A stretch of DNA of 64,000 nt, taken from the NCBI GenBank assembly GCA_963707955.1, contig OY970176.1:512001-576000 (forward strand). The letters run 5' to 3'. Position numbers and translations under genes: made by a program. The notes below the pieces were generated by a model, which was not told the origin of the DNA, did not search any database, and saw nothing but the letters and a program-made list of their open reading frames with translations. The DNA comes from Candidatus Bathyarchaeota archaeon. Its GTDB lineage: Archaea; Thermoproteota; Bathyarchaeia; Bathyarchaeales; Bathycorpusculaceae. This document shows, in pieces, positions 46,069 through 64,000 of the stretch (positions within the stretch are counted from its first letter, which is position 1; every line of letters starts with the position of its first letter).

Positions 46069-46304
46069 GTATAATTCCCGATGCACTACTGATTGGGCAG
46101 TATTTATAAAGCTAGTAGCGCGCGCCACTACAAAATAACAGCTTACGGATTCGCTAAAGCGCGCGCGCTACCATGATGTGGCACTCGCTTACGCTCGTGC
46201 TCCGCTAAAACGCCTTCCAAAACCAACCAACCACGAAAGCGCGCGCGCTACACACCAAAAAAGGGGAAAGTAGAGGCAACTAAAAAGCCTAACTCGCGCG
46301 CTTA

Positions 46305-46796
46305 TCAGCTTCTCTTCACTAACTCTTTTGCTAAATTTGAGAATGAAAGAAAACCAGAATCTTCATTAAGATTCACTAAGAAACTTGCCGAATACGTCAC
46401 TTCCCAAAACTCATTCTTTTCAAGTTTTCTTTTAAATTCTGCATAAGAAGAGTAGTCTTCATGAAGCGAAACAACCAAGTGCGAAGACTTCAAGCCTAAC
46501 CCTCTTTCAAACATTAGAATATTTGAGAAAGTGCCTAGCGCCCTTCCAAACTCTTTCGAATCAGGTTCCTTAACCATGGCAAGAAAGGTTATAGCCAAGA
46601 TTTCAAACCCTAACTTGCGGAAGTCTGGAATTGCGGTATATTCTCTTATGACCTTTTCTTTTTCGAGTCTAGCCCTTAATCTTGTGACTGTCGGTTGGGA
46701 AACGCCTACAGACCTAGCTAGTTCTCTGTCACTTCTTCGACTGTCCTTCATAAGCTCACTGATTAGTTTTGATTCAACAGTTTTCAACGTAAGCAC
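46305..46796 (-). CDS. Lrp/AsnC family transcriptional regulator
   Basis: SRRSDRELARSVGVSQPTVTR; paralog of 138..635. Confidence 0.88.
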   Translation of the reverse strand: MLTLKTVESKLISELMKDSRRSDRELARSVGVSQPTVTRLRARLEKEKVIREYTAIPDFRKLGFEILAITFLAMVKEPDSKEFGRALGTFSNILMFERGLGLKSSHLVVSLHEDYSSYAEFKRKLEKNEFWEVTYSASFLVNLNEDSGFLSFSNLAKELVKRS

Positions 46797-55402: not shown

Positions 55403-55779
55403 AAACAGAATACTTCTTAATGAACTTTCGTTTAAAATAGAATACCGGGCGATTAGGCCTCGCCGATTTCTGGATTCGCGCTTTTCATGGATGGGGAGCG
55501 CTACATCCCTGTATTCGCGTTTTTCCCCTTCTATTCCACCCGCCTCCCCCCTAGGGTACTAGTACTGCACGTAGCCATTGCGAAAGGCCCTACTGGATTT
55601 GTGTGGGCTTTAAGCTGAGCTTGTGTAGAAGGCTTGAAAGAGGGCTGGGCGAAGGTAGTAACTTTTCTATGCATTCAACCGTCACCGTTTTCTGGCTTCA
55701 TCTGCCCTGCTCCGAGCTTGCTAAAACGCCCGTCCTCCATGCTAGGGTGTCAGCCATACTTAGCCCGTCAAGCGTGTCT

Positions 55780-55953
55780 TCAGTCGAGTCTGTCGCCGCG
55801 GATTTGTTCAGTCATCAAGCCTAGGCTTTTTGCGTATTCCAAGAATGCGGTGCGCAGAGCCTCGCTTTCAGCCATTCCTAGGCTTATGCACATTCGGTCA
55901 AGAACCTTCTTCTGTGAAGGTGGCAGGTAGACCTTGACAACTTTTCTTGCCAA
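55780..55953 (-). CDS. 57-aa RHH/CopG-like regulator (not in ORF track)
   Basis: MARKVVKVYLPPSQKKVLDRMCISLGMAESEALRTAFLEYAKSLGL...; GAGGTGA site upstream. Confidence 0.65.
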   Translation of the reverse strand: MARKVVKVYLPPSQKKVLDRMCISLGMAESEALRTAFLEYAKSLGLMTEQIRGDRLD

Positions 55954-56066
55954 AAAACATCACCTCTTTAGACATCTCACCGTCTTCGGTTCTGAACATA
56001 CGGAGGGTCCTAATTCATAAAAGAAATAGAGTAGATAATATACCATTTAGACTAATTCTTAAATAG

Positions 56067-57314
56067 ATGAATAGACTAGTACCTAGTAGGGAAAGAGCTA
56101 TGGTAGAAAGTAAGATGATCTTGGAATGGGCCAAAGCATCTTATAGGACCGAACAGAACCAGAAGGCAGCTATTAGAAAACTTAGAGACTTTCTAGCTTT
56201 CACTAAGATGGCCCCCGAAGAGCTTGTTAAGGAACAAAGAGCTAAGATAGATGAGAGAGCTGCACAGAGAAGGATCTTAGCTTTCTATAAGAAGATCATA
56301 GATGCTGGAAAGACTCCCACCGTGGCCTTTGACTATACTAAGTTTCTAAGAAGCTTCTATAACTACTATGGCCTTGTGTTGTCCTTTAGGCCTAATGAGT
56401 TAGAGATGCCTCTGCCTAAGATCAAAGACTTTCCCTTTGAGCTACAGCACATTCAAGGTATGATCTATGCTGCCAATGTTAAAGGTAAAGCGCTCATACT
56501 AACTCTTGAAAGCAGTGGTCTTAGGATAGGCGATATAGTCAAGCTACTCAGAAAAGACATTGAGCCTTTGCTAGAGAAAGAGCCCCCTGTAGAGCTTGAA
56601 GTGATTACAGAAAAGGAAAGAGTAAGGGCTAATTCTTTTCTCCATTCAGTAGCAATCAAGGCCTTAAAGGATTATCTAGCTTCTAGGACAGATGACTTTC
56701 CTTGGCTATTTACTACCGATTTAGGTAGTAATCTCTCTACGCCTGAAGCAGACCGAATGGTTAAGACAGCCTTTAAGAATGCTGGGTTTGACAGTGGAAA
56801 TCTTAGAGTCCGAACACACTGCATTAGAAAGTTTACTATAGGGCAGTTTCAGGACAGTGGCATAGAGGAAAACCTTTGGAAAGCTATTGTCGGTAAGAAA
56901 ACACCACAGGCTGCCTATAACTCTAACAAACTGAGAGAAGCATACATTTCAGCTCTGCCTAAGCTAAATCCAGAGGCACTTGTCAATAACCATGTGAAGA
57001 TGGATGATCTAGCTAACAAGGTCCAGACTCTTGAAAAGGAGAACCTAGAGCTTAGGCAGAAACTTACTGAGCTAGAGCAGAAGAAGGGTTTTGAGGTGTT
57101 AATGGAGATGTACCAAGACAGACAGAAAGAGATCAATAAAGATGCCTTCAATAAGGCTGCTCCAGCCAAGGCCAGTCTGAATGGTAAGAAACCTGCTCCT
57201 ACAGAACCTATAACAATCAATGGATCAGAGATTCTAAGTCTAAAGGCTCTAGCTCAAAGTCTACAGCTCTTCTATGATAAGAAGAAGAAAGAAGGACAGT
57301 CTAAGAATGAATGA
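56067..57314 (+). CDS. Tyrosine integrase with C-terminal coiled coil
   Basis: SSGLRIGD, THCIRKF, VGKK...AAY. Confidence 0.88.
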   Translation: MNRLVPSRERAMVESKMILEWAKASYRTEQNQKAAIRKLRDFLAFTKMAPEELVKEQRAKIDERAAQRRILAFYKKIIDAGKTPTVAFDYTKFLRSFYNYYGLVLSFRPNELEMPLPKIKDFPFELQHIQGMIYAANVKGKALILTLESSGLRIGDIVKLLRKDIEPLLEKEPPVELEVITEKERVRANSFLHSVAIKALKDYLASRTDDFPWLFTTDLGSNLSTPEADRMVKTAFKNAGFDSGNLRVRTHCIRKFTIGQFQDSGIEENLWKAIVGKKTPQAAYNSNKLREAYISALPKLNPEALVNNHVKMDDLANKVQTLEKENLELRQKLTELEQKKGFEVLMEMYQDRQKEINKDAFNKAAPAKASLNGKKPAPTEPITINGSEILSLKALAQSLQLFYDKKKKEGQSKNE

Positions 57315-57423
57315 TCAAGTATTCTATGCAACCTTGGCTATTCTTACCTTCATATTCTTTCTAGGGCTAGTTATTGTAATCAAAGAGACATTCAAGCTGC
57401 CTAGAAGTAAAAAGCCCCATTAG
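57307..57423 (+). CDS. 38-aa single-TM peptide coupled to the integrase stop
   Basis: MNDQVFYATLAILTFIFFLGLVIVIKETFKLPRSKKPH, followed by a T-rich terminator. Confidence 0.55.
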   Translation: MNDQVFYATLAILTFIFFLGLVIVIKETFKLPRSKKPH

Positions 57424-57486
57424 TCTCTCTTTTTTATTCTCCAAGTTTACCACATTAAGATTCTAGATAAAAATATAGTGACCATC

Positions 57487-57629
57487 TCAGTCAAAGGTTC
57501 AGAGACGGCCACTAGCTGTTATGATGGTAAGAGGACGTTCCGAAAAGGAAGCGCCCGGTCTCCCATCAGTGTGGCCGTAGGCAGTAAAGCCCAAGTGAAT
57601 GACAATCAGTTCACTTGAACCGCGACTGA
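57487..57629 (-). ncRNA. Candidate multi-branch structured RNA of unknown class
   Basis: Six nested helices found by eye; G-U pairs work on the minus strand. Confidence 0.6.
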
Positions 57630-57649
57630 CCGCCCTTAGCCTATCACTT

Positions 57650-57751
57650 CTAAGATAGTGCTTTTACTATCTTCTGCAATATCTCAACTATACCCGTTCC
57701 TGCTGATGGGTTGCTGAGAAGAATAACTACATCATCTAATGTGGCTGCCAT
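57650..57751 (-). CDS. 33-aa hypothetical peptide
   Basis: MAATLDDVVILLSNPSAGTGIVEILQKIVKALS; GGTGA site upstream. Confidence 0.5.
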   Translation of the reverse strand: MAATLDDVVILLSNPSAGTGIVEILQKIVKALS

Positions 57752-57758
57752 TTGTTAA

Positions 57759-57878
57759 TCACCTGCCTTTATCCTTAATTGGTGCTCTAGTGTAGAGCTC
57801 AAATTTACCGTCTTGAAGGGTTATTCTCAGTACAAAGCATTTGCCGAAGAGGTTTAACCATATCCCGCCCTTAGCCAT
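57759..57878 (-). CDS. 39-aa hypothetical peptide
   Basis: MAKGGIWLNLFGKCFVLRITLQDGKFELYTRAPIKDKGR; fills the gap in the operon. Confidence 0.35.
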   Translation of the reverse strand: MAKGGIWLNLFGKCFVLRITLQDGKFELYTRAPIKDKGR

Positions 57879-59039: not shown

Positions 59040-60449
59040 CTATTTTCCCTTCTTTCCAAATAGAAGATCAAAACACCGCTCACAGTAGACTTTTCTACCC
59101 TTCAAGTCTTCCTTAACTGTGACTATTCTTCCGCAGCGTTCGCAGCATAAACGGTTATTGCGTGTAGTAGTATTCCCAGTGAGACTATTGAAAACTTTAC
59201 CACTATTCATGTTCGCTATGACTACGGCTCTAGGAGTTTCTTTTACTTCTGGAATGATGTCCCAACATAGTGCTAAGCCTAAGGCATCTACTAGGTTATC
59301 ATTTCTGGTTTTACCCTTATGATAGTGGGACAGTTCAAAATACAATTCCTTAAAGTTCTGTGGGGCTTTAAAATGACCAAGATTGATGGTATTCTTAACC
59401 TCACCCAGAATCTTATCCTTATAGATCTGGGCCTCTATGTAATTTGGTTTCAGTCCATGTTGTTCTAAGAGACCGTGAAATTCAACGGGTTGGTTATCCA
59501 TTCGGATGCTTGTGACTCTATACTGCTTCATAAGAGTTGCAATGGCTTGGGGATCAAACTCTCTCATGTTTAGGGCATAGAGAACTTTGAATCTCTCCTT
59601 TTGCCTTTCAACAATGATTATACCGGTCGCATTGGTCTTGCCATAGCCCGGATCTATTCCCGCTTGTATCTTACTAGTAGAAATACCAGAAGCTATAGGT
59701 TCAATATCTTTACTGAAAGATCTACTTAGTGCTTCATTATCTAGAAACTCTTTCTCTTCGCTTGTTGGTATTCTAGCTAAGATCTCCCGGGCATATGCCG
59801 CTTCACTCAGTCTCATCTTTGATCCTTTGTTAGATTCTTGCTGCCATGGACAGACCTCTGAGCTAAACTGCTTAAGAGTAAAACCGTATTTCTCTGGATC
59901 TGTTATTAGATCCACAAAGAAACCAGAGGGCTCAGACGGTGTGCTTAGTACGACTAGCTTACAGATAGAACCGCTTAGAACCGGGGTTAAAGCTTTCCAC
60001 ACTGTGTCTTTGATCAAGCATGCCTCATCAACGAAGAGAATATCAGCTCTGAATCCCCTTATAGACTTAGATGTGGCCATGCATGTGTCAACAATGGAAC
60101 CGTTCTCAAGTTGAAACCCGTTCTCGGGGATCTCTTTAAACATTCCACCCTGAACGATCTTAGCTTTAATATCCGGGTTATCTCGGACAAAGTTGTTTAA
60201 GTGGAAGTACATTCTCTTCTGCCCTGAGACTAGGAGAATCTCAAGCGGTCTTTTGAGCTCATTAGAATATACATCAGCGTACCAGAGACTAGCTAGAGCA
60301 CAAAGCATAGTCTTTGAAAACCCTCTACCTGCACAAAGTGCTAAGTTTTTTATATCGAAGTTGGCTAAAGCTTCTAGGACTTCAATTTGTTCTGGTATTG
60401 GCTCTAGCTTTGTGATTCTACGGAAATAGCTAACTATGTCTTCATGCAT
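59040..60449 (-). CDS. terL: Terminase large subunit with C-terminal zinc ribbon
   Basis: AGRGFSKT, IRG..ADILFVDEA, LSTP, nuclease GIDPG and DNLVDAL; tail CERC...CERC. Confidence 0.88.
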   Translation of the reverse strand: MHEDIVSYFRRITKLEPIPEQIEVLEALANFDIKNLALCAGRGFSKTMLCALASLWYADVYSNELKRPLEILLVSGQKRMYFHLNNFVRDNPDIKAKIVQGGMFKEIPENGFQLENGSIVDTCMATSKSIRGFRADILFVDEACLIKDTVWKALTPVLSGSICKLVVLSTPSEPSGFFVDLITDPEKYGFTLKQFSSEVCPWQQESNKGSKMRLSEAAYAREILARIPTSEEKEFLDNEALSRSFSKDIEPIASGISTSKIQAGIDPGYGKTNATGIIIVERQKERFKVLYALNMREFDPQAIATLMKQYRVTSIRMDNQPVEFHGLLEQHGLKPNYIEAQIYKDKILGEVKNTINLGHFKAPQNFKELYFELSHYHKGKTRNDNLVDALGLALCWDIIPEVKETPRAVVIANMNSGKVFNSLTGNTTTRNNRLCCERCGRIVTVKEDLKGRKVYCERCFDLLFGKKGK

Positions 60450-62541
60450 CTACAAACCCTCCTAAGTTCTCATCTTGTTCTGAGGTTCGAATCCTTATTC
60501 CCTGATAGAATCGAGTTCGTATGCCCTTAACCATAGGACGACTCTGTTTGAACAGAATGTATTTTCTTAGCTTCATTAGCAGTATTTGATCCGAGAGTGG
60601 AACCTGAGACCGCTTCTTACAGAACTCATTAAAGACTATAGAAAGTTGCTTTAGACTTATCTCAGACTGGAGATCTGGAACAAGCATACTCTCTGTGAAA
60701 TCTTTGACTATATCAACCGTCCATATGGCCTGAGTCTCATGGCTATCTGTTTCAATGGTGAATCCTTTGTTATCTAAGAGTCTCTTTAAGCCAACTAGAG
60801 CTTTGTTCAATAGGCCTGAAAGTTCTGTGTCCGTCGTTAGCTTGTCTAGAAGGTTGTTATCCCTTTTACCATTCTCTTTGCTAAAGACTCTGTCAAAATT
60901 GAAGATCTGTGGTCTTCGATAGAAAGCATAGCTAGTGTCTGTTGTTTCCGGAAGTTGGTTAGCAACGAAGAGTAGCTTGGCGTAGTTTACGAAATATATT
61001 GGATCTTGATGGAACTTTACGTCTCCCTTGATTCTGGATCTGCCGGTCATTTCCTTAAACTTAGAACTGTCTCTAAGCGCTTGGGTGCTAAGTTCGTCTG
61101 CTACGTTTGCCAGCTTACCATATGAGAGAGCTGTCTTGAAATTGTCCCCTAGCTCTTGCATTGGGACATGGCTAACGTTATCTTCTCCTAGGAATTTGAT
61201 TAATAGATTAAGGAAAGTGGTCTTACCGTTCTCGCCTTCTCCGACCAAGAAGAAAGCCTTTTCAAATAGATAGTTGCGATAAAGACAGAACCCGAAAAAC
61301 TCCAAGATTGTTTCTATGTGTTTATTGCTCTCAAGCCATTCAGAGAGAGCTTTGTCTATCAATGGGCAGGTTGCTTTAGGATCGTATCTTATTGGAAGCT
61401 TATTGAGAAAAGGTACGCTTGGTGTATGTGGCTGCAATTCAAGAGTGTTTATGTCTAGAATACCGTTTTGGAGACAGATTAAGTTTAGAGGTACGTTATC
61501 AAAGTAGCTTTCTGCTACCGGTACGCTAAGCTTGATTCTAGAGAGCACCTGTTCAAAGTCTATCCTTTGATAATCATCCCCGAACTCGTTTACTATGGCT
61601 AAGCCTATTGTCTGTTCAGGTAACCCCCGGGCTTTGTATATCCCATCCTCGTAGATGAAAAGCTGTTGATTTGGTAGACAGATAAAAACATGCTCTTGCA
61701 TAAGCTGTCTGAAAACTCTAGCTCTCTTTTCGATAGTAACGTCAGACTTCTTATAATATGGTATTCTAGTCTTGAAAGCGCTTGTTACTTTCTCTAGAAT
61801 AGTCTGATCTGGTAAAGGCGGTGTGTTCTTCAAATTCCAACTGAGGAGAATATCTCTAACCTCTTCAAAGGTCCTCTTCTGGGCTCTAAGTTTGCTTGCC
61901 AATAGAATGGCGGTATTATCCCGTTCACCCTCAGCTACTCCATGACTGAGAAGAGTCTCTATATCGAGAAACTTGGTATTTCTATTTGCTTTGGGTTTAA
62001 GATTATAATGCTGTATAATCTCTTTGAAAGTGATGGATGCATCTTGAATAGAAAGAATTGGCTTATCTACGACTAGATCTGAGTACATATTGGCTAGATG
62101 CTTGCTTGAGAGAAAGTCTACGTTCTCAAAGTTCTCATCTATCTGTACTTCTAGATCTGATAAAAGGAATACGTGATAACCATGGTTGGGTGTTTTCTCT
62201 ACGTAAGTCCCCATATCCTTAAAGTCTTCGTCTCTCCATAACCCTAACCCCTTCTTGTCATCAAAGTCTATACAAACTAGAAACTTACCAGATCTTGTCT
62301 TTCCGAGTATGACAGAGAACCCGTCAGCTTGGTCCCATCGCTGGCTCTCAAACTCACCCGGGGCCATAAGAGCTGTCTGGTATTGATCCCACTTCTCAAG
62401 TGGCTTATGGAAAGCTTTACTCTTTCTAATTTCTGTCTTGGTTGGGATTACGCTGAATCCTTGATCATACCAATACTTAGCTTTAGTCTTGATAGACTCA
62501 GACGTCAAGAGGATCTCTCCTTGGATAGAATGTTCGCCCAC
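60442..62541 (-). CDS. Prim-Pol primase / PriCT / SF3 (D5-like) helicase fusion
   Basis: GFSVIP, CIDFD, TPNHGYHV, EGERDN, GEGENGKTT, NVADE, VANQLP, AFYRR. Confidence 0.9.
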   Translation of the reverse strand: MGEHSIQGEILLTSESIKTKAKYWYDQGFSVIPTKTEIRKSKAFHKPLEKWDQYQTALMAPGEFESQRWDQADGFSVILGKTRSGKFLVCIDFDDKKGLGLWRDEDFKDMGTYVEKTPNHGYHVFLLSDLEVQIDENFENVDFLSSKHLANMYSDLVVDKPILSIQDASITFKEIIQHYNLKPKANRNTKFLDIETLLSHGVAEGERDNTAILLASKLRAQKRTFEEVRDILLSWNLKNTPPLPDQTILEKVTSAFKTRIPYYKKSDVTIEKRARVFRQLMQEHVFICLPNQQLFIYEDGIYKARGLPEQTIGLAIVNEFGDDYQRIDFEQVLSRIKLSVPVAESYFDNVPLNLICLQNGILDINTLELQPHTPSVPFLNKLPIRYDPKATCPLIDKALSEWLESNKHIETILEFFGFCLYRNYLFEKAFFLVGEGENGKTTFLNLLIKFLGEDNVSHVPMQELGDNFKTALSYGKLANVADELSTQALRDSSKFKEMTGRSRIKGDVKFHQDPIYFVNYAKLLFVANQLPETTDTSYAFYRRPQIFNFDRVFSKENGKRDNNLLDKLTTDTELSGLLNKALVGLKRLLDNKGFTIETDSHETQAIWTVDIVKDFTESMLVPDLQSEISLKQLSIVFNEFCKKRSQVPLSDQILLMKLRKYILFKQSRPMVKGIRTRFYQGIRIRTSEQDENLGGFVDA

Positions 62542-62689
62542 AATTCTGGCATATGTACCGTTGAGTACGTCCGAACTTTCTTGTTACGAATGAACCGCCT
62601 AGGACAATATGATGGCTATGACAATCCGGGCACTCAAGACTAGAGCTGTCTGGCTTTCTTGGTCTGCCAACTTTATGCTTTTCCCGCAT
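62498..62689 (-). CDS. AT-hook plus zinc-ribbon DNA-binding protein
   Basis: GRPRK, CPDC...QRYICQNCGRTF; first gene of the minus-strand operon. Confidence 0.7.
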   Translation of the reverse strand: MREKHKVGRPRKPDSSSLECPDCHSHHIVLGGSFVTRKFGRTQRYICQNCGRTFYPRRDPLDV

Positions 62690-62967
62690 AGTTATACTCT
62701 CTATTACTTCACTAGGTATACTAGGGCACCAGAGAATTTAAACGTAGCTGTCACTCTTAGTGAATAAATATAAATTATTAGTCATTTCCTGAGTTTAATT
62801 CTGTAGATATACGAGCATGTTATACGGCTAGTTGTATTAATTGAAATTGTCTACCTAGATTGTCCTAGGGAGAGAATTTTAAGAGAGTAAAACTACAAAG
62901 ATAGAGGACCCGGGCTAGGGCTACAGATATATTATCATAATGATGAACTAGTTGGGTGCTTATAGAA

Positions 62968-63400
62968 AGTTACACTTTGCGGATGCCTATAAACGACGCT
63001 GATATTTGGTTTTCGGGTGCTGGCGGGGGTCGCATCAGTCAGTGACATTCTGGGCGACCGTAGTCGGTGCCGCTTTCTAATGCCTCTGGTGGCGTCAGCA
63101 TACTTTATCACTTCCAGCAGGCCTAAGCGGTGTAATTCCATATTTAGTGACACCGATAGCGACCGTAGACTGTTACTGTATGCTTGTAGAACACGTCCTT
63201 AGAATTTAACTTCTAGTGACGGGCTTATATATAATATGCTAGGAATTACACTATACAGTAAACTTAGTCAAATTGCGGTGTCACTACAAGCGGTCGCTCC
63301 CGGGGGTCGCCCGTAGCAAAACGATATCGTAGGTGTAACTGGCTAGGCGCGCTGATAAGGTCGTTAGGTAGGGGCACCGTAAGGTAGGCCCGAGATGCTG
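62968..63400. other. Non-coding region with at least twelve complementary segment pairs in non-nested order
   Basis: Pairs of 6-11 bp between 62968-63189 and 63242-63400; listed in findings. Confidence 0.65.
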
Positions 63401-63512
63401 CTATAGTTTACTATATACTACTATTAGGAAACTTAGGGGGAACTCAAAGAGAGGAATGGGATTTGACTGACAGTATAGCAGATTGGATCTAGATCATCAT
63501 TGTTACCATATG

Positions 63513-63676
63513 AAGCTAGAGGTCGGGCAAAACAATGGTCTTTTGTCTACCCTGTCCTACCTCACTATTTATTCTCCCTATAATTACACTATATTAAATA
63601 TCTACACTCTTACAGATAAATAAGAGGGGAGGTAGGGTAAGCTAGACAGGTCGGGCAAATTACCATCAAAGACCAT
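63513..63676. repeat. Direct and inverted repeats, possible origin or second structured domain
   Basis: AAGCTAGA(CA)GGTCGGGCAAA at 63513 and 63639; ATGGTCTTT/AAAGACCAT and CCTACCTC/GAGGTAGG inverted pairs. Confidence 0.55.
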
Positions 63677-64000
63677 AAGGCGATTGCCCAGAGTAGCCAA
63701 GGGCTCTCTATTAGCTCTCTACCCCCAATTGAAACTACCCGTGCATCCCTTTTAGTGAATAGAACTTAGATCTTACTCGGTACTTTAGCTATTCGCCAAC
63801 TATGCAACCAACAATGCATTATCTAACGTATTTCAAGTGAGGTATAAATAACAGTTGTCCCATGATCTAAACTGTGAGAATCTTGACAGTAAAGACATGG
63901 GGAGGACAGCCATACTTAGACACTAACCGCCATTCTAGTCCCAGAGAGATTTGCATAGCCCAAGATGATCTTTACTCTGAGCAGATGAAGATAGAGAACT

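Follow-up and report, generated by a model that had tools for sequence, protein, structure and literature searches.

Scrambled complementary words beside an origin-like palindrome in an integrated archaeal element: candidate protein-binding sites in double-stranded DNA

The stretch 62968–63400 of a 64,000-nucleotide window from the genome of a Candidatus Bathyarchaeota archaeon (contig OY970176.1; all positions below are those of this window unless stated otherwise) is dense in short words which recur as their reverse complements within the same stretch, in scrambled order. It lies in a 10.46 kb integrated element, in the middle of the sole long spacer of this element (62690–63873, 1.2 kb) between two divergent gene sets and about 280–710 nt upstream of an operon coding for a small zinc-ribbon protein and a primase–helicase. 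Eight pairs of inverted words of at least 7 nt stand far above the number that shuffled sequence yields. The explanation that we favour, and to which we give about an even chance on the evidence of the sequence, is that the stretch is an element-specific cluster of iteron-like protein-binding words in an origin or control region, which would act as double-stranded DNA and not as an RNA gene.

Word pairs compared with shuffled sequence

The original prediction for this stretch had listed twelve pairs of complementary words and proposed a large folded structure. All twelve pairs are indeed exact reverse complements at the coordinates given there, and seven of them are 8 nt or longer, as had been counted (CGGTGCC has 7 nt and is thus outside that count). 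For the statistics, the left half of the stretch (62968–63190, 223 nt) was compared with the right half (63242–63400, 159 nt) and each half was dinucleotide-shuffled separately 1000 times. Seven inverted matches of at least 8 nt between the halves compare with 0.47 ± 0.69 in the shuffles, in agreement with the earlier rough estimate of less than one such pair by chance, and none of the 1000 shuffles reaches seven. With a minimal length of 7 nt ten matches are found versus 1.83 ± 1.36 (0/1000), and with a minimal length of 9 nt three matches versus 0.12, a number reached by one shuffle in 1000. Likewise, the summed length of the inverted matches of at least 7 nt is 83 versus 13.4 ± 10.1, with a shuffle maximum of 54 (0/1000), and repeating the comparison of the halves with 500 shuffles gave the same outcome. 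Shuffled controls, which had been proposed as a check of the pattern, thus do not approach the observed count.

For matches of exactly 6 nt the halves are at the chance level, with six observed and about 5.2 expected, and therefore the pairs AACGAC, CAGCAT, TTATCA and GGCCTA carry no signal. The signal rests on eight pairs of at least 7 nt, designated as follows:

Pair A: AGTTACAC
Pair C: GGGCGACC
Pair D: CGGTGCC
Pair H: GTGTAATTCC
Pair I: TAGTGACACCG
Pair J: AGCGACCG
Pair K: TTACTGTAT
Pair L: GCTTGTAG

The members of a pair are 80 to 365 nt apart. Each pair is perfect over its 7–11 nt, and the similarity stops abruptly beyond the edges of the words. The non-nested order of the pairs and the tiling of 63242–63400 by partner words, both described earlier, are upheld by our analysis, the partner words taking up 89 of these 159 nt. 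In addition, a TATA-like tract does separate the two halves, at 63225–63237 and not at 63224–63236, so that its earlier position was off by one base. The G+C content of the stretch is 0.48–0.51 versus 0.36–0.41 around it.

Arrangement and shared cores of the words

The stretch and its immediate surroundings are composed of the following parts:

62929–62951: outer left arm, a 23-nt imperfect inverted repeat, 78% complementary to 63489–63511
62968–63400: repeat-dense stretch with the eight significant inverted word pairs and direct repeats
63127–63190: inner left block with GTGTAATTCC, TAGTGACACCG, AGCGACCG, TTACTGTAT and GCTTGTAG within 64 nt
63194–63221: central imperfect palindrome of 28 nt, 78% self-complementary (self-blastn)
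63225–63237: TATA-like tract TTATATATAATAT, the A+T-rich centre between the inner blocks
63242–63298: inner right block with the five words of the inner left block as reverse complements, arranged H, K, I, L, J
63366–63388, + strand: AGGTAGG, which is also the core word of the origin-like palindrome next to it, twice in direct orientation at a distance of 16 nt
63489–63511: outer right arm, a 23-nt imperfect inverted repeat

The TATA-like tract TTATATATAATAT contains a perfect palindrome of 10 nt, TTATATATAA. The 23-nt arms have no further copy in the genome when up to 5 mismatches are allowed. At a coarse scale the whole is a large degenerate palindrome in which words near the centre have their partners near the centre and outlying words have theirs far out; at the fine scale the order is free. 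The order of the inner right block (H, K, I, L, J) follows the order of the left block (H, I, J, K, L) and does not mirror it. As an antiparallel fold needs the mirrored order, the block order speaks against such a fold. Two junctions in the right half, GCTTGTAG / TAGTGACACCG and AGCGACCG / GCTTGTAG, share 1–3 nt.

The words also recur in direct orientation. Within 62968–63400 there are 10 direct matches of at least 7 nt versus 4.7 ± 2.1 in shuffles (reached by 6/300) and 12 inverted matches versus 4.4 ± 2.1 (reached by 1/300); the direct repeats include the 10-mers CGGGGGTCGC and GCGACCGTAG. In the somewhat larger region 62900–63650 near-matches with 1–2 mismatches are enriched in both orientations, and the 9-mers with at most one mismatch number 62 in direct orientation (41.2 ± 9.9 in shuffles) and 75 in inverted orientation (35.4 ± 8.7).

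Many of these matches go back to a few cores. The tetranucleotide CGGT is present in 62968–63400 in eight copies, four per strand, versus 2.4 expected, and the next base is always G or C. The longer words are CGGTGTCAC (two copies), CGGTCGC (three), CGGTGCC (two) and CGGTGTAAT (one), and these copies explain the pairs C, D, I and J as well as the direct repeats GCGACCGTAG, AAGCGGT and GCGGTGT. A second group consists of GTGTAAT, GTGTAAC and GTGTCAC with three, two and two copies in the entire element, all of them within the intergenic spacer. Finally, AGGTAGG has four copies in the element versus 0.54 expected, at 63366, 63382, 63556 (− strand) and 63630, again all in the spacer. Two of these copies are inside 62968–63400 and two are in the arms of the origin-like palindrome to its right, which links both parts of the spacer.

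The replication genes and the origin-like palindrome

The features that bear on a possible replication origin are:

60442–62541, − strand: prim-pol / D5_N / SF3 helicase replication protein (P4-type primase–helicase), 699 aa
62498–62689, − strand: small zinc-ribbon protein of 63 aa at the head of the primase operon, with a weak match to Pfam Zn_ribbon_8 below the cut-off
63544–63648 (105 nt): origin-like palindrome with two 9-nt words per arm, TGTCTACCC + TGTCCTACC and GGTAGGGTA + AGCTAGACA, and an A+T-rich spacer

The primase–helicase matches the Pfam families DUF5906 (8.2e-19) and D5_N (1.1e-7). Compared with the structure 7ola (SaPI5 PriRep5) it reaches an E-value of 4.4e-17 as a single sequence and of 1e-36 as a family profile, and its prim-pol N-terminus matches the pRN1 protein ORF904 (1rni) with an E-value of 0.001. 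The family profile extends to residue 747 of the 7ola chain, and there are weak matches to RFX winged-helix proteins at positions 612–681 (E 0.037 and 0.16), so that a winged helix is weakly indicated in this protein. The zinc-ribbon protein is 40% identical (E 2.9e-7) to an open reading frame in the same position of a related contig, L036.

Homologues of the primase are found in 49 of the 401 genomes sampled from the class, the own genome included, and also in metagenomes; the closest are about 47–51% identical. The three closest contigs, whose primases are 48–50% identical, were compared with the element: L035 (11.3 kb), L036 (10.3 kb) and L037 (2.1 kb). L035 and L036 have in common with it the order primase, small open reading frame and terminase large-subunit-like (TerL-like) gene, and L036 in addition the open reading frame for the zinc-ribbon protein. 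In L036 (3491–3610) tandem 9-nt iterons of the type TGACTCATA are followed by an A+T-rich spacer of about 55–60 nt and by inverted iterons. L037 (154–283) has opposed 9-nt iterons of the type TTGCCTTGG around an A+T-rich spacer of likewise about 55–60 nt, and L035 carries a direct array of words of the type GGTGGGTGC. The hexamers GCGGTG and GCGGTC occur in the tandem iterons of L035, the closest relative, and, read by eye, in three words of 62968–63400.

Such arrays are a recurrent property of the family. Defined by arms of 24 nt in which 19 or more positions are complementary, by 30–100 nt between the arms and by a lag-9 identity of at least 0.6 in each arm, opposed iteron arrays with a 9-nt period are present at 18 of the 83 loci of relatives, with an A+T-rich spacer of 47–96 nt. 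A sample of 480 kb of the host genome has four palindromes, none of them with a 9-nt period. The inverted 9-nt-period arrays are a simple signature for locating origins in this family. The 18 loci fall within the loci L007–L051, for example, L014 2628–2768, L019 2560–2681 and L009 2748–2854; the arrays hold two to three iterons, whose sequence varies by locus. At most of the eight loci with listed open reading frames the array coincides with the 3′ end of the primase–helicase gene or follows it closely.

The palindrome at 63544–63648 can be aligned by blast (E 0.002) with those that the iterons form in L036 and L037. Its 30-nt arms are 73% complementary with 45 nt between them, a direct repeat, AGGTCGGGCAAA, stands on either side of it (63520 and 63648), and its spacer between the iteron arms has 57 nt and a G+C content of only 0.23. 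A consensus fold of the palindrome with those of L036 and L037, three sequences only, has −5.5 kcal/mol and 15 pairs, five of which show double changes, and is uninformative. The stretch 62968–63400 is thus not itself the conserved origin-like structure of the family; it belongs to an extra, element-specific stretch of about 580 nt beside that structure.

A putative origin and control region

By analogy with the origins of SaPI5 PriRep5 and pRN1 we suggest that the region 62929–63666 is the origin or control region of the element. The words of 7–11 nt, which are about the size of the 9-nt iterons of the family, would be putative sites for a DNA-binding protein encoded by the element. Many of them are built on a CGGT(G/C) or a GTGT(A/C)A(C/T) core and occur on both strands and on either side of the A+T-rich centre 63194–63237. 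Candidates for the binding protein are the C-terminal domain of the prim-pol/SF3 primase–helicase and the zinc-ribbon protein encoded with it in one operon. As in the origins of SaPI-type primase–helicase replicons, sites facing each other across an A+T-rich stretch could orient the loading of the helicase or could set the control of replication or of a promoter, and the stretch might perhaps be an accessory iteron cluster. Such a mechanism would depend on how each word is oriented towards the A+T-rich centre and not on the order of the words, and the scrambled complementarity would be a by-product of a few word families being present in both orientations. What the sequence shows directly is how the region is built, how its counts compare with chance, where it lies in the genome and that RNA signals are absent; protein binding and any role in replication we infer by analogy. 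Among the earlier proposals was also a folded origin or packaging signal. The placement on the side of the origin is plausible, and the evidence fits protein-binding words in double-stranded DNA and not a fold.

SaPI5 PriRep5, the best-characterized homologue, loads itself at an origin of about 300 bp with iterons oppositely disposed around an A+T-rich region. Part of the iterons have the reverse orientation to others on their side, and a C-terminal winged helix contacts each iteron (10.64898/2026.10.17.759575). The element resembles SaPI5 in its homologous replication protein and in short words in both orientations around an A+T-rich centre near the replication gene. However, in SaPI one word of 5–7 nt is present many times and the origin is downstream of rep, whereas here a degenerate family is found with each variant about twice and at irregular spacing, upstream of the operon and in an archaeal element.

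The origin of pRN1 is formed by an inverted-repeat stem–loop of about 100 nt, which has to be intact (PMC4234260). The prim-pol domain is homologous to that of ORF904, and in both replicons the operon starts with a small protein, which is a DNA-binding protein in pRN1; ORF56 of pRN1 is described as a transcriptional repressor, whereas the element has a zinc-ribbon protein to which no function is assigned. The length of the pRN1 origin, about 100 nt, is also close to the 105 nt of the palindrome 63544–63648. On the other hand, the pRN1 origin is a single hairpin downstream of orf904, whereas 62968–63400 is not a hairpin and its pairs cross.

A third comparison concerns phage P4, since homologues of the primase are labelled ‘P4 family phage/plasmid primase-like’ by JGI and P4, with its alpha primase–helicase, is likewise a small integrated element that combines an integrase with a primase–helicase. 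In P4 one octamer serves as the iteron both in ori and in a second cluster, the distant cis replication region crr, and the occurrence of AGGTAGG in the palindrome as well as in the repeat-dense stretch would parallel this. P4 differs in having no terminase, where the archaeal element has a TerL-like gene, and in its host. A further comparison is with the 9-nt iteron arrays of the relatives, which belong to the same protein family and of which those of L036 and L037 align with 63544–63648, but 62968–63400 is an extra stretch and the flanks of the relatives are without a comparable excess. Origins with iterons for an SF3 primase–helicase are a known kind, of which the region would be a variant, with a disordered cluster of words in two orientations beside a degenerate iteron palindrome. 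Our literature search, which was not exhaustive, found no description of such a region in archaeal elements.

Two properties of an iteron origin are found here: the region lies beside the initiator gene on the same mobile element, and opposed words flank an A+T-rich segment. Nevertheless, a number of observations weigh against our interpretation. True iterons are one word at regular spacing, and 62968–63400 has no tandem array; its words are degenerate and irregularly spaced, unlike the regular 9-nt arrays of the relatives. As the single, regularly spaced word is missing, we do not file the region as a canonical origin. In addition, iterons usually evolve in concert, which is unlike a state in which each variant word has one exact opposite partner. 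The CGGT core, and likewise the GTGT cores, were picked after inspection of the sequence, so that P values for them are optimistic. The coding sequence of an open reading frame of 563 aa elsewhere in the genome also reaches nine scrambled inverted 8-mers per 433 nt; such counts hence occur in coding DNA too. At 6 of the 16 helix ends the next position is a G–T pair on the + strand versus an A–C pair at 0 of 16, a weak hint at pairing of the + strand (rough binomial p 0.05–0.09).

The comparison with the relatives adds further points of this sort. L035, L036 and L037 have no counterpart of 62968–63400, their spacers aligning with ours at one patch only, and inverted 8-mers are not in excess in these three closest spacers (3 versus 5.2, 12 versus 10.4 and 5 versus 3.4). 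At the 18 related loci with an array, 1 of 34 palindrome flanks has an inverted excess with p ≤ 0.01, which is the chance rate; thus the repeat-dense feature is not conserved and may not be needed. The own palindrome is weaker than those of the relatives, with 17 of 24 arm positions paired and a period-9 identity of 0.53, and falls outside the definition of the arrays given above, so that the assignment of the origin is itself uncertain. One apparent recurrence, at L009 3000–3560 (7 inverted matches of at least 8 nt versus 1.31, 0/500), was rejected, as this locus had been selected as the top one among some 30, and systematic testing of the flanks gave 1/34.

If the words are binding sites, the region would represent a natural origin or control region in which orientation is kept and in which order and sequence are free, and it would offer a handle on what the C-terminal domain of archaeal prim-pol/SF3 proteins recognizes. 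How small integrated elements of archaea control their replication has received little study.

Possible copying of short patches

The main rival explanation, which we consider possible though rather doubtful, is that the pairs are a by-product of mutation and have hardly any function or none. Template switching between strands over short distances, or gene conversion within a large degenerate palindrome next to an origin, from one arm to the other, would have copied patches of 8–11 nt to nearby places in inverted orientation, and template switching at quasi-palindromes creates such patches. In favour of this explanation are the perfect identity of the pairs over 7–11 nt with sharp edges, their scrambled order with a spacing of 80 to 365 nt, and the 1–3 nt shared at two junctions of the right half. 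Further, 62929–63511 is bracketed by the 23-nt inverted arms with a palindrome at its centre, and the region is absent from the relatives and hence not conserved. On the contrary, patches copied at random should not share a core, yet there are eight CGGT(G/C) and seven GTGT(A/C)A(C/T) words; direct repeats also exceed expectation, and two AGGTAGG words of the palindrome lie inside the region. Both explanations do not exclude each other. The identical, sharp-edged variant words and the bases shared at junctions suggest that template switching or conversion also shapes the region, and in a cluster of protein-binding words the exact identity of the pairs may be refreshed by template switching or by gene conversion between the arms.

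Tests for a folded RNA or single-stranded DNA

A structured RNA, or a fold of single-stranded DNA used in priming or packaging, is in our view unlikely. It would be either pseudoknotted or a switch between the helices A-C-J-L and D-I-K. Such a fold would agree with the real excess of exact inverted matches, with the G+C content above that of the surroundings and with the G–T pairs at the helix ends, and pRN1, which has the same prim-pol domain, needs an intact stem–loop origin of 100 nt (PMC4234260). Nevertheless, the original suggestions of a large ornate non-coding RNA, of two RNAs pairing in trans and of a conformational switch find no support in Rfam, in the predicted folds, in the crossing of the helices or in the symmetry of the strands.

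A cmscan search of 62000–64000 against Rfam with E ≤ 1 gave no match inside 62968–63400; two weak matches to plant miRNA families lie outside it, with 24 and 15.5 bits versus gathering scores of 139 and 160. With ARAGORN neither a tRNA nor a tmRNA came up in 62000–64000, in the whole window or in L002, the sequence that extends beyond the window. The minimum-free-energy z-score of 62960–63410 is −0.99 on the + strand and −1.51 on the − strand, and the halves on either strand have −1.26, 0.08, 0.25 and 0.33; these values come from nested folding, which cannot score pseudoknots. The z-scores thus range from −1.51 to +0.33.

Most of the eight helices cross. At most four of them (A, C, J and L) nest, with D, I and K as an alternative nested set, and by a rough estimate four nesting out of eight is about what a random order gives. 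Moreover, five helices of about one turn that cross within 170 nt could hardly coexist. Ungapped stems with G–U pairs allowed are, at the lowest threshold, about twofold enriched on both strands (32 versus 14.9 on the + strand and 17 versus 8.3 on the − strand). This symmetry weighs against an RNA, which is expected to favour one strand, and the enrichment of direct repeats points in the same direction. A scan with bacterial-type consensus sequences found one promoter-like site versus 3.3 expected and no intrinsic-terminator-like site; the consensus is not applicable to archaeal promoters. In four DNA runs of one study, which contain the same strain and are labelled freshwater sediment metagenome, there are 3–4 differences outside 62968–63400 and none inside. 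As an RNA candidate the stretch at present has little merit; of greater use are the element itself and the signature of 9-nt iterons, both of which the analysis yielded along the way.

Frequency of the pattern in the genome

Chance is in our judgement decidedly unlikely as an explanation. According to it the stretch would be the extreme tail of a genome of 2.35 Mb, found because 64 kb were scanned for just such a pattern. The genome consists of one contig of 2,346,764 bases and was divided into 93,854 sliding windows of 433 nt in which inverted exact matches were counted. Seven or more inverted matches of at least 8 nt occur in 122 of these windows, corresponding to 30 loci, and nine matches at five loci:

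62926–63558: the region of 62968–63400 itself
63776–64533: in the same element, 400 nt rightward
genome position 2,010,176
two loci: both copies of the duplicated open reading frame of 563 aa

The number of 30 loci, the equal count in a duplicated coding gene and the chance level of the four 6-mers are in line with chance. So is the outcome of a split-half scan, in which windows of 500 nt were cut at their centre: the locus ranks first among 93,851 centres (n = 6), yet its Poisson p is 1e-4, no centre falls below 1e-4 and the runner-up is nearly equal with 1.3e-4. With a stricter redundancy filter the locus is fourth by summed length. Thus, the excess is real against the local composition, yet the count alone would not single out the locus genome-wide, and the number of inverted 8-mers by itself is no proof of function.

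On the contrary, none of 1000 composition-matched shuffles reaches the count or the summed length, and nine matches are found at five loci where about 0.5 windows are expected (Poisson, genome mean 1.21). Two of these five loci lie within one element of 10 kb. Direct repeats, near-matches, shared cores and AGGTAGG copies agree independently, and the region occupies the only long spacer of the element and adjoins an origin-like palindrome.

The duplicated open reading frame of 563 aa is located at genome positions 2099291–2100982 and 2105275–2106966, within a segment of about 6 kb which is present twice, 5984 nt apart.

Very unlikely, finally, is that selection keeps the pairs because single-stranded DNA or RNA at a prim-pol/SF3 origin folds with them in alternative ways, with a switch between A-C-J-L and D-I-K and helix H crossing both, for example, between priming or replication and packaging by the TerL-like protein of the element, as a kind of larger, multi-state version of the stem–loop origin of pRN1 in an element that may be an archaeal virus satellite.

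Searches for homologues and other classes of repeats

The stretch 62968–63400 is present as a single copy in its own genome, and no homologue of it was found in 60 relatives, in the three closest elements or by pattern scans of contigs. The DNA search of the 60 relatives gave only a match of 32 nt, outside the stretch. Searches of collections of genome contigs and of viral contigs with patterns of the primase–helicase gave no match, and scanning viral contigs for the region with exact patterns gave 0 matches. One exact match to a 22-nt pattern among genome contigs, in an alphaproteobacterial metagenome-assembled genome with 63% G+C, was put down to chance, as it has no flanking similarity and about 0.07 such matches are expected by our estimate.

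Two other classes were rejected. A MITE or IS insertion would be suggested by the 23-nt arms bracketing 62929–63511, but the arms and the interior are single-copy and no flanking duplication was seen. For a CRISPR or mini-CRISPR direct repeats of at least 24 nt at regular spacing are required; the longest exact direct repeats measure 10 nt and are spaced by 105 and 277 nt. The small open reading frames at 62935–63153 (− strand), 63017–63202 (+ strand) and 63483–63623 (+ strand) match no family at a meaningful E-value.

The element, its other genes and further repeats

The host is an archaeon, as its small-subunit rRNA gene scores 1474 bits and the archaeal model wins the clan competition. Searches with PF12942 (amoA) and PF02249 (mcrA) gave no archaeal match, an outcome that carries no weight, as the amoA control was silent everywhere. 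The integrated element extends from 56014 to the window-equivalent position 66489 (L002 2014–12489). In two genomes of the same genus (G001:C18 and G007:C8) the site is empty and the flanks abut with an overlap of 12 nt. The G+C content of the element is lower, about 0.33–0.45. Its remaining features are:

56014–56025: left 12-bp direct repeat TTCATAAAAGAA, bounding the element
56067–57314, + strand: tyrosine integrase (Pfam Phage_integrase, E 1.3e-6; phrog_216, E 4.7e-13)
within the element: open reading frames of 256 aa and 61 aa, no function assigned
59040–60449, − strand: TerL-like protein, 469 aa, in one operon with the zinc-ribbon protein and the primase–helicase (phrog_2, E 7.6e-23)
from 63874: rightward open reading frames, no function assigned
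window-equivalent 66478–66489 (L002 12478–12489), beyond the window: right 12-bp direct repeat TTCATAAAAGAA

The TerL-like protein has in addition a weak match to Pfam Terminase_6N (E 2.4e-4), below the cut-off, and matches T4 gp17 (3ezk) with an E-value of 0.0031. Neither Pfam nor PHROGs recognized a capsid gene in the element. From this gene content the element is a candidate archaeal virus satellite or a cryptic element. Archaeal virus satellites have reportedly been proposed only recently, in two preprints, and this setting may matter more than the word cluster.

Further parts of the element are dense in repeats. The second locus with nine inverted matches, 63776–64533 (L002 9776–10533), reaches past the end of the window and overlaps ORF121 and ORF83, which match no family and may not be genes; the words recurring there are AGATCTTA, CTAAGATC, AGAGTCTA and TAGAAAGA. 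Its part 64076–64508 has 23 direct matches of at least 7 nt versus 11.0 and 19 inverted matches versus 9.9. The 5′ part of the integrase open reading frame beside the left att repeat (56101–56533) has 18 direct matches versus 8.4 and 18 inverted matches versus 6.8; these repeats may be arm-type sites, with the true start of the integrase lying further downstream. The spacer after the integrase (57400–57832) has 11 inverted matches versus 4.8. These other non-coding or doubtfully coding parts of the element (56101–56533, 57400–57832 and 64076–64508) are thus repeat-dense as well, and two coding controls are not.

The 8-mer CTAAGATC is present in the element eight times, both strands counted together, versus 0.18 expected from its frequency in the genome (40 copies in 2.35 Mb), at 56273, 56416, 58233, 59777, 60156, 64372, 64376 and 64484. 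The TerL-like gene and the 256-aa open reading frame together contain three of them.

Outside the element, close to its insertion site on the left, a dispersed repeat of about 100–250 nt is found at 55480–55780. The genome contains 23 copies of this repeat with 74–89% identity; it occurs in many copies also in G001 and G007 of the same genus, and may be a MITE-like family. Finally, the palindromic word AGCGCGCGCT and its variants form clusters with a spacing of tens of nucleotides at several genomic loci, namely at 46115–46305 and at the window-equivalent positions 744963–745300 and 294792–295180.

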